Part shown: one piece after another, positions 19,357 through 19,995 of the stretch
Position numbering within the stretch: the stretch's first letter is position 1
How the letters are laid out: each line of letters begins with the position of its first letter
From: Escherichia coli
GTDB lineage: Bacteria > Pseudomonadota > Gammaproteobacteria > Enterobacterales > Enterobacteriaceae
Length of the DNA stretch: 64,000 bases
Assembly (NCBI RefSeq): GCF_003334765.1
Contig: NZ_QOWT01000006.1
Direction: 5' to 3' (one strand)
Translations under genes and position numbers: made by a program
The notes under the pieces: generated by a model
What the model was told of the DNA's origin: nothing
What the model saw: the letters and a program-made list of their open reading frames with translations, nothing else
The model's database searches: none

Positions 19357-19773
19357 TTAAACCATCACCAGCGATAACTCTTTGCCAAGCGCCTTTGCCG
19401 CGAGCTGGACGGCGTCGATTTTTGTCGCATGATGCAAGTTAAATAGGCGAGTAATCTCCTGTTTAGGTTTGCCAATTCGCCTGGCTAACTCTTGCTGAGT
19501 GATTTCTGACTGTAAAAAAGCATTTAACAGCAATACCTTAGAGGCGACGCTCAAAGGTACTTCAATAAAGTGATCGTGACTATTTAATGGCGAAGGTAAA
19601 GGGATAAGCTCGTTATCTTCAAAATAAAAATCAAATGCGGTCAGTAAAGCATCTTTTGCCGCTTCCATCGCTTCAGCGACAGTTTCGCCCTGGGTCAACG
19701 CTTCAGGGATATCCACAAAAGAAACCATATAACCGCCTTCCGGCGCGGGTGTAAGAGTGACGGGATAACGCAT
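19357..19773 (-). CDS. hicB: HicB antitoxin
   Basis: ORF-track protein; start placed at the internal ATG (MRYPVTLTPAPEGG...) to give 138 aa. An alternative start at 19794 exists. C-terminal DNA-binding region. Confidence 0.8.
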   Translation of the reverse strand: MRYPVTLTPAPEGGYMVSFVDIPEALTQGETVAEAMEAAKDALLTAFDFYFEDNELIPLPSPLNSHDHFIEVPLSVASKVLLLNAFLQSEITQQELARRIGKPKQEITRLFNLHHATKIDAVQLAAKALGKELSLVMV

Positions 19774-19818
19774 AATTTCGACTGTCTCTCGCATGTCATT
19801 AACCTTTTTAATTGGCGA

Positions 19819-19995
19819 TTAACTCAAACCGAGTTGTTTCAGGATTGCTTTACGCAATGGTTCTTTAATCTCATCGCAGGGGTGACGCGGCATGACACTG
19901 CGCCTCCCATGAAACCTGAGTTTCAAATGGTTGCTGCCATTCGCTACATCGACGCCCTGAGATTCGAGCCAACGTCTGAACTCGCTTTGTTTCAC
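19819..19995 (-). CDS. hicA: HicA mRNA-interferase toxin, 58 aa
   Basis: GTG-initiated ORF translating to (M)KQSEFRRWLESQGVDVANGSNHLKLRFHGRRSVMPRHPC...; lies immediately upstream of hicB; too short for the ORF track. Confidence 0.75.
   Translation of the reverse strand: MKQSEFRRWLESQGVDVANGSNHLKLRFHGRRSVMPRHPCDEIKEPLRKAILKQLGLS

Follow-up and report, generated by a model that had tools for sequence, protein, structure and literature searches.

The locus comprises two genes on the minus strand, hicA and then hicB, arranged as a bicistronic unit in which the toxin gene lies directly 5' of the antitoxin gene (Table 1). All positions refer to the window, that is, the whole 64-kb stretch of DNA that was analyzed; its minus strand was read between 19100 and 20300, and all open reading frames (ORFs) were listed.

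Gene structure and protein identity

Table 1. Features of the hicAB locus, with positions numbered from the first letter of the window
Feature	Position	Strand	Description	Basis
hicA CDS	19819..19995	minus	58 codons; GTG start 19995-19993; TAA stop 19821-19819	ORF list, Pfam, 6HPB chain A, RefSeq, PHROG
hicB CDS	19357..19773	minus	138 codons; ATG start at 19773 (MRYPV...); TAA stop 19359-19357	ORF list, Pfam, PDB, RefSeq, PHROG
hicA-hicB spacer	19774..19818	minus	45 nt; holds an alternative in-frame ATG, 19794-19792	
hicA Shine-Dalgarno, GGGAGG	20000..20005	minus	4 nt 5' of the GTG	Direct sequence reading
ATG-TGA "start-stop" (gcgATGTGAaa)	19992..19997	minus	Overlaps the hicA GTG in another frame	Direct sequence reading
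Inverted repeat GTAAACA-CTAA-TGTTTAC	20028..20045	none	Perfect, 7+7; probable hicO	Inverted-repeat search
Extended -10, TGaTATACT (TGnTATACT)	20014..20022	minus	Candidate P2	-10 scan: TATACT with TG at -15/-14
Upstream intergenic region, to divergent yncJ	20046..20216	minus	Expected home of P1 and the CRP-S site	Literature
TGcTATTTT	20074..20066	minus	Candidate, extended -10-like	Consensus scan
TGGAATCTTCCTTCCT	20126..20111	minus	Candidate, weak CRP-S match, 7/10	
TTTTGCAAATTAGCGCAAAGAA	20152..20131	minus	Candidate, weak CRP-S match, 11/19	

According to both the ORF list and the minus-strand sequence, the hicA ORF has no in-frame start 5' of its GTG. The next in-frame methionine is codon 35, and translation starting there would lose the catalytic residue, His23. 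About one in seven E. coli genes starts with GTG, so that this start codon is unremarkable by itself. The Shine-Dalgarno sequence of hicA is kept in three other E. coli alleles in the allele alignment, and in the relative from Cronobacter phage ENT39118 the hicA GTG is preceded by AGGAGGAGG. The ATG-TGA start-stop at the hicA GTG is kept in all E. coli alleles examined and absent from the Cronobacter phage relative. A preliminary description had proposed a 58-codon HicA ORF with a GTG at 19995, a gap of 45 nt before hicB, and a toxin gene placed ahead of the antitoxin gene. The minus-strand sequence and the ORF list agree with the first of these to the base, the gap is exact given ATG 19773 as the start of hicB, and the gene order is that of the ORF coordinates and of RefSeq.

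Both products are proteins of known structure. HicA is 100% identical over its full length of 58 residues to chain A of PDB entry 6HPB (E = 1.9e-36), and HicB over its full 138 residues to chain B (E = 8.8e-87), which rules out a chance pair of ORFs. HicB is also 100% identical to 6HPC and to residues 11-148 of 6U0I. At the level of families, HicA matches Pfam HicA_toxin (PF07927, 3.7e-7, residues 5-57 of 58), the N-terminal domain of HicB, of the partial RNase H-like type, matches HicB_lk_antitox (PF15919, 1.3e-7), and the C terminus of HicB is an Xre-type helix-turn-helix (HTH) (HTH_3, PF01381, 2.8e-7, residues 95-141 when the ORF is read as 145 aa). In PHROGs, HicA falls into PHROG 353, "toxin" (8.7e-11), and HicB into PHROG 497, "HicB-like" (2.1e-35), both in the moron/auxiliary gene class. 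The catalytic histidine is present in HicA within a G-x-x-H motif (...NGSNH23LK...), and H23 is invariant in an alignment of four HicA homologs that includes those of phages and a plasmid. In a genome that matches window positions 19200-20250 with 100% identity, the RefSeq coordinates of hicA and hicB coincide with these two ORFs.

The profile search for the HicA and HicB folds, which the preliminary description had named as its check, matched both proteins, and the outcome named there as a refutation, a lack of such matches, did not occur. Its assignment of a HicA/HicB pair is borne out by these Pfam matches and by full identity to the crystallized E. coli proteins, and the DNA-binding C terminus that it ascribed to HicB by the HTH_3 match. 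An NCBIfam HMM search of HicA, HicB, and YncJ returned zero matches; the RefSeq names of these proteins apparently derive from other rules, so that this result does not count against the hicAB identity. PADLOC returned nothing for HicA and, for HicB, only weak, marginal matches in the HTH region. Given these gaps in NCBIfam and PADLOC, the family assignment is drawn from Pfam, PHROGs, and the identity to PDB entries. Nothing was found that contradicts the hicAB identification, and the locus is almost certainly the chromosomal hicAB type II toxin-antitoxin operon of E. coli, intact and with proteins identical to those of the characterized K-12 system. The operon itself is already known: its proteins have been solved structurally, its promoters have been mapped, and its RNase activity has been demonstrated. 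The locus serves as a positive control, in which a tool-free reading of the raw sequence got genes, start codon, spacer, and context right.

Operator, promoters, and proposed regulation

The inverted repeat upstream of hicA is the only substantial one within 19950-20220; this 7+7 palindrome was picked up with the minimum length set to 6 but not with it set to 8. A search of all 64 kb of the window for its core, TAAACA-N4-TGTTTA, with up to one mismatch tolerated, found this single copy, against an expectation of 0.21. The distance from core to hicA is 32 nt here and 34 nt in both Cronobacter phage ENT39118 and Moraxella phage Mcat1. The literature describes hicO as an inverted repeat located at P2 (PMC10865869, where the sequence is not given). 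The palindrome is probably hicO, and the predicted target of HicB dimers, since its core is kept in phage modules with a HicB that shares only 58% (ENT39118) or 51% (Mcat1) identity with HicB of the window.

The sequence TGaTATACT, 5 nt beyond the downstream end of the palindrome, is a good candidate for the -10 element of P2. A generic sigma-70 and terminator scan reported no promoter 5' of hicA, neither P1 nor P2, and P2 was visible only as this extended -10 in a custom scan. A start 6 to 8 nt past the element would put the predicted 5' end of the transcript at 20008-20005, where it borders on or falls within the hicA Shine-Dalgarno sequence, and this position fits the published P2 transcripts without HicA expression.

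The primary papers with hicAB promoter maps are reportedly Jorgensen 2009, Turnbull & Gerdes 2017, and Sinha 2009. A CRP-S site would be expected at a Class I-like distance 5' of the promoter. Scans for such a site 5' of hicA used three queries, namely, the palindromic TGCGA-N6-TCGCA, a 22-mer, and the asymmetric E. coli form (TGCGA-N6-TTCCA), and their best matches, 7/10 and 11/19, were no better than the background of the window. Among E. coli alleles, the region upstream of hicA varies too little for their alignment to serve for footprinting. Rfam yielded no known small RNA and one spurious snoRNA match over the upstream region (E = 0.91). Farther away, between yncJ and rlhA (20448-20487, minus strand), a match to the REP-derived Rfam family naRNA4 falls below the gathering score (28.7 versus 59.5 bits) and most likely reflects an ordinary REP element.

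How does an operon with the toxin gene in first position provide enough antitoxin? The gene order implies that antitoxin excess is secured by transcription, from two promoters. In the picture that follows, RNase activity, neutralization, two-promoter logic, and Lon dependence are taken from the literature, and gene structure, domains, identity to solved proteins, palindrome, and extended -10 were established in this analysis. HicA is described as an mRNA interferase of the dsRBD fold that is independent of ribosomes and translation and has His23 as its catalytic residue (PMC8138530, PMC10865869, PMC11594946; for the catalytic role, PMC8138530), and at this locus it would cleave mRNAs independently of translation and thereby cause growth arrest. 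HicB, whose N-terminal domain covers the HicA active site and whose HTH dimerizes it into a HicA2B2 complex (PMC8138530, PMC10865869, PMC11594946), would neutralize HicA 1:1 with its partial RNase H-like domain packed over the active site, and a HicB dimer formed through the C-terminal HTH would complete HicA2B2. Lon degrades HicB (PMC8138530, PMC10865869, PMC11594946) and would do so here. For the identical E. coli proteins, growth arrest and RNA cleavage by HicA, neutralization by HicB, and lability to Lon are attributed to Jorgensen 2009 in the citing passages of PMC11594946, PMC10865869, and PMC11951105.

Two promoters have been described for E. coli hicAB, a CRP-Sxy-dependent P1 and a HicB-repressed P2 that yields HicB alone (PMC11594946, PMC8138530, PMC6957337, PMC10865869); P1 has a CRP-S site and gives an mRNA for both proteins (PMC11594946, PMC11951105, PMC8138530, PMC6957337). 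P1, activated by CRP-Sxy through the CRP-S site, would thus supply the hicA-hicB mRNA. P2 would overlap the operator hicO and start too near the hicA ribosome-binding site for anything but HicB to be translated. HicB would repress P2, and excess HicA would displace HicB from hicO, so that HicB synthesis is selectively restored. The sources for this mechanism (PMC11594946, PMC8138530, PMC6957337, PMC10865869) cite Jorgensen 2009, Turnbull & Gerdes 2017, and Manav 2019; hicAB goes unmentioned in PMC7232551.

Genomic setting, phage-borne relatives, and the start of hicB

The window is collinear with an annotated genome at 99.97% identity over positions 561-41147. RefSeq annotation places ydcR downstream of hicAB and yncJ upstream in divergent orientation, the same flanks that the preliminary description had given. 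The neighbors include ydcR (a MocR-type regulator), the ABC transporter ydcSTUV with patD, the small protein gene yncJ, rlhA (an rRNA hydroxylase), sutR (a regulator), and ydcO. The characterization of the surroundings as otherwise metabolic is partly apt, but it passes over the regulators ydcR and sutR, the transporter, rlhA, and the toxin genes ortT and hokB within the window. By collinearity, ortT (orphan toxin) lies at 11719-11892 on the minus strand and hokB (type I toxin) at 37210-37359 on the plus strand; an IS200/IS605 insQ(tnpB)/tnpA remnant lies at 24416-26057 and a gapC pseudogene at 38568-39568, and the IS600 near 41.2 kb of the annotated reference genome is absent from the window. 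In the interval between hicB and ydcR (19279-19356), a generic scan detected no intrinsic terminator, and transcription of hicAB may read through into ydcR. Two promoter-like sites precede ydcR, at 19339..19312 and 19330..19302.

The G+C content of the module is 0.42-0.48, versus about 0.52 in its flanks. In the collections searched, temperate phages and a few plasmids carry the relatives nearest to it outside E. coli; low G+C and such relatives are compatible with a horizontal origin. None of the annotated neighbors flanking hicAB is a prophage gene.

The pair of Cronobacter phage ENT39118 (NC_019934) has the toxin gene first, a GTG at the homologous codon, and the same HTH-type HicB C terminus, with HicA 71% and HicB 58% identical. 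Unlike the E. coli locus, it is phage borne and adjoins holin and endolysin genes. The record annotates the HicB-like gene alone, and an unannotated 58-codon hicA lies just upstream of it, at 974-1150. Located 5' of this hicA, at 922-939, is ATAAACA-AAAA-TGTTTAT, with the same palindrome core as the presumed hicO. The phage palindrome shares part of its right arm with a -10-like TATACT, whereas the E. coli -10 element lies beyond the palindrome. From the position of the phage element, we infer that transcription starting there should run through the hicA ribosome-binding site, which would give a single-promoter layout rather than the P1/P2 arrangement of E. coli. The Moraxella Mcat phages encode a HicB 51% identical to that of the window. 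In Moraxella phage Mcat1 (KR093625), TAAACA-N4-TGTTTA at 605-622 overlaps a TATAAT -10 and lies 34 nt 5' of the hicA homolog, whose 62-aa product (656-844) is annotated "hypothetical protein." The operator core is common to the E. coli, Cronobacter phage, and Moraxella phage hicAB modules and was not found in the Variovorax plasmid homolog.

Another question is the physiological role of the operon, which is separate from its identity and mechanism. Could hicAB act in anti-phage defense, or be a domesticated phage "moron," and not a growth regulator linked to stress or competence? The closest non-E. coli relatives reside in temperate phages, one of them (ENT39118) beside lysis genes and with the shared operator core; together with the moron/auxiliary class assigned by PHROGs, the G+C difference between module and flanks, and a bioinformatic review that argues for a defense role of HicA domains (PMC10865869), this gives the proposal some substance. 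We nevertheless consider it unlikely, as HicA has no PADLOC match, prophage genes are missing from the flanks, virtually every E. coli has hicAB at this one chromosomal position, the published regulation links P1 to CRP-Sxy (PMC11951105, PMC8138530, PMC6957337), and the literature found holds no phage-protection phenotype for E. coli hicAB.

The homologs also bear on the start of hicB, whose ORF can be read from its first ATG, at 19794 (145 aa), or from the next one in frame, at 19773 (138 aa). With the former, the spacer would shrink to 24 nt and HicB would gain seven residues, MRETVEI. ATG 19794 is the earliest start codon of the ORF and is shared by the E. coli alleles that were compared, AAAGG lies 8 nt 5' of it, and a promoter-like match overlaps it. 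Against this, the Pfam HicB domain opens at residue 10 if the protein has 145 aa and at residue 3 if it has 138 aa, the crystallized HicB is the 138-aa form, and RefSeq places the start at 19773. Furthermore, the HicB homologs of Cronobacter phage ENT39118, Moraxella phage Mcat1, and the Variovorax plasmid begin at an aligned M-x-Y-P; all three lack an ATG where 19794 would align, and their upstream residues are unrelated, without a conserved extension. ATG 19773 is therefore accepted as the probable start, and the longer HicB, very improbable on this comparison, is kept as a minor rival.

Allelic variation and comparison with known systems

A megablast search found the locus (window 19200-20250) in 5,417 of the 5,426 complete E. 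coli genomes, many of them 100% identical. Alleles were counted with three 50-nt diagnostic junction or site queries against the same 5,426 genomes. About 3,269 genomes are intact across the 22-bp site described next, with that site alone being scored. A 22-bp deletion, present in 811 genomes, frameshifts hicA and leaves hicB intact; it runs between TGCG direct repeats, at 19878..19857 or, equivalently, up to 4 nt downstream, at 19874..19853. A larger deletion of 445 bp (window about 20040..19596; 1,093 genomes) takes half of the palindrome, the candidate -10 element of P2, all of hicA, and approximately the first 59 codons of hicB. By these two specific deletions, hicA is inactivated in at least 35% of the complete genomes. 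A few genomes are without the whole yncJ-hicAB segment. In a rare allele, that of E. coli FDAARGOS_943 (3001-3070), the 3' end of rlhA, yncJ, hicA, and hicB are deleted, and the truncated rlhA abuts ydcR. Although inactivating lesions at hicAB in about one-third of complete E. coli genomes might suggest that the operon described here is likewise an inactive remnant with a decayed toxin or antitoxin, this is extremely improbable, as the window carries the intact allele with neither deletion, both ORFs are full length and identical to proteins that were expressed, active, and crystallized, and the hicA Shine-Dalgarno sequence, the palindrome, and the -10 element are all intact.

Read jointly, relatives and alleles would portray hicAB as a phage module captured long ago, which to this day has its HicB-operator pair in common with temperate phages of Cronobacter and Moraxella and whose toxin gene has been lost repeatedly while hicB or an HTH fragment of it was retained. 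We offer this only as a speculation of low probability. If true, the resident HicB could cross-repress, or be titrated by, the hicAB promoters of incoming phages. Neither the shared operator nor the allele frequencies are reported in the literature found on hicAB. The shared operator core and the frequencies of the two hicA deletions could be of interest to students of toxin-antitoxin evolution and decay, and they leave the understanding of the hicAB system unchanged.

The operon of the window is best placed among known systems by its identity to the E. coli K-12 HicA-HicB pair (b4532/b1438; 6HPB, 6HPC, 6U0I), with which it has the proteins, gene order, GTG start, 45-nt spacer, and ydcR/yncJ context in common. 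No difference from that pair was detected, and the operon is an instance of the K-12 locus. The HicAB systems of the ribbon-helix-helix type, such as those of Burkholderia pseudomallei, Yersinia pestis (HicA3B3), and Streptococcus pneumoniae (HicBA), share the dsRBD-fold HicA RNase with its catalytic histidine and likewise combine neutralization by the HicB N terminus with operator binding that is relieved by excess HicA (PMC11594946, PMC8138530). Their HicB, however, carries a ribbon-helix-helix domain and forms tetramers or octamers, whereas the C terminus of the HicB described here is an Xre-type HTH; S. pneumoniae HicB (5YRZ) gives a marginal match to it (E = 0.007). A toxin-first order is also found in higBA, mqsRA, and toxTA of Haemophilus influenzae, where an extra antitoxin-only promoter likewise provides antitoxin excess, and toxTA has a CRP-S promoter as well (PMC6957337, PMC8138530). 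The toxins of these three systems belong to the RelE/ParE superfamily and are mostly ribosome dependent, whereas HicA has the unrelated dsRBD fold.
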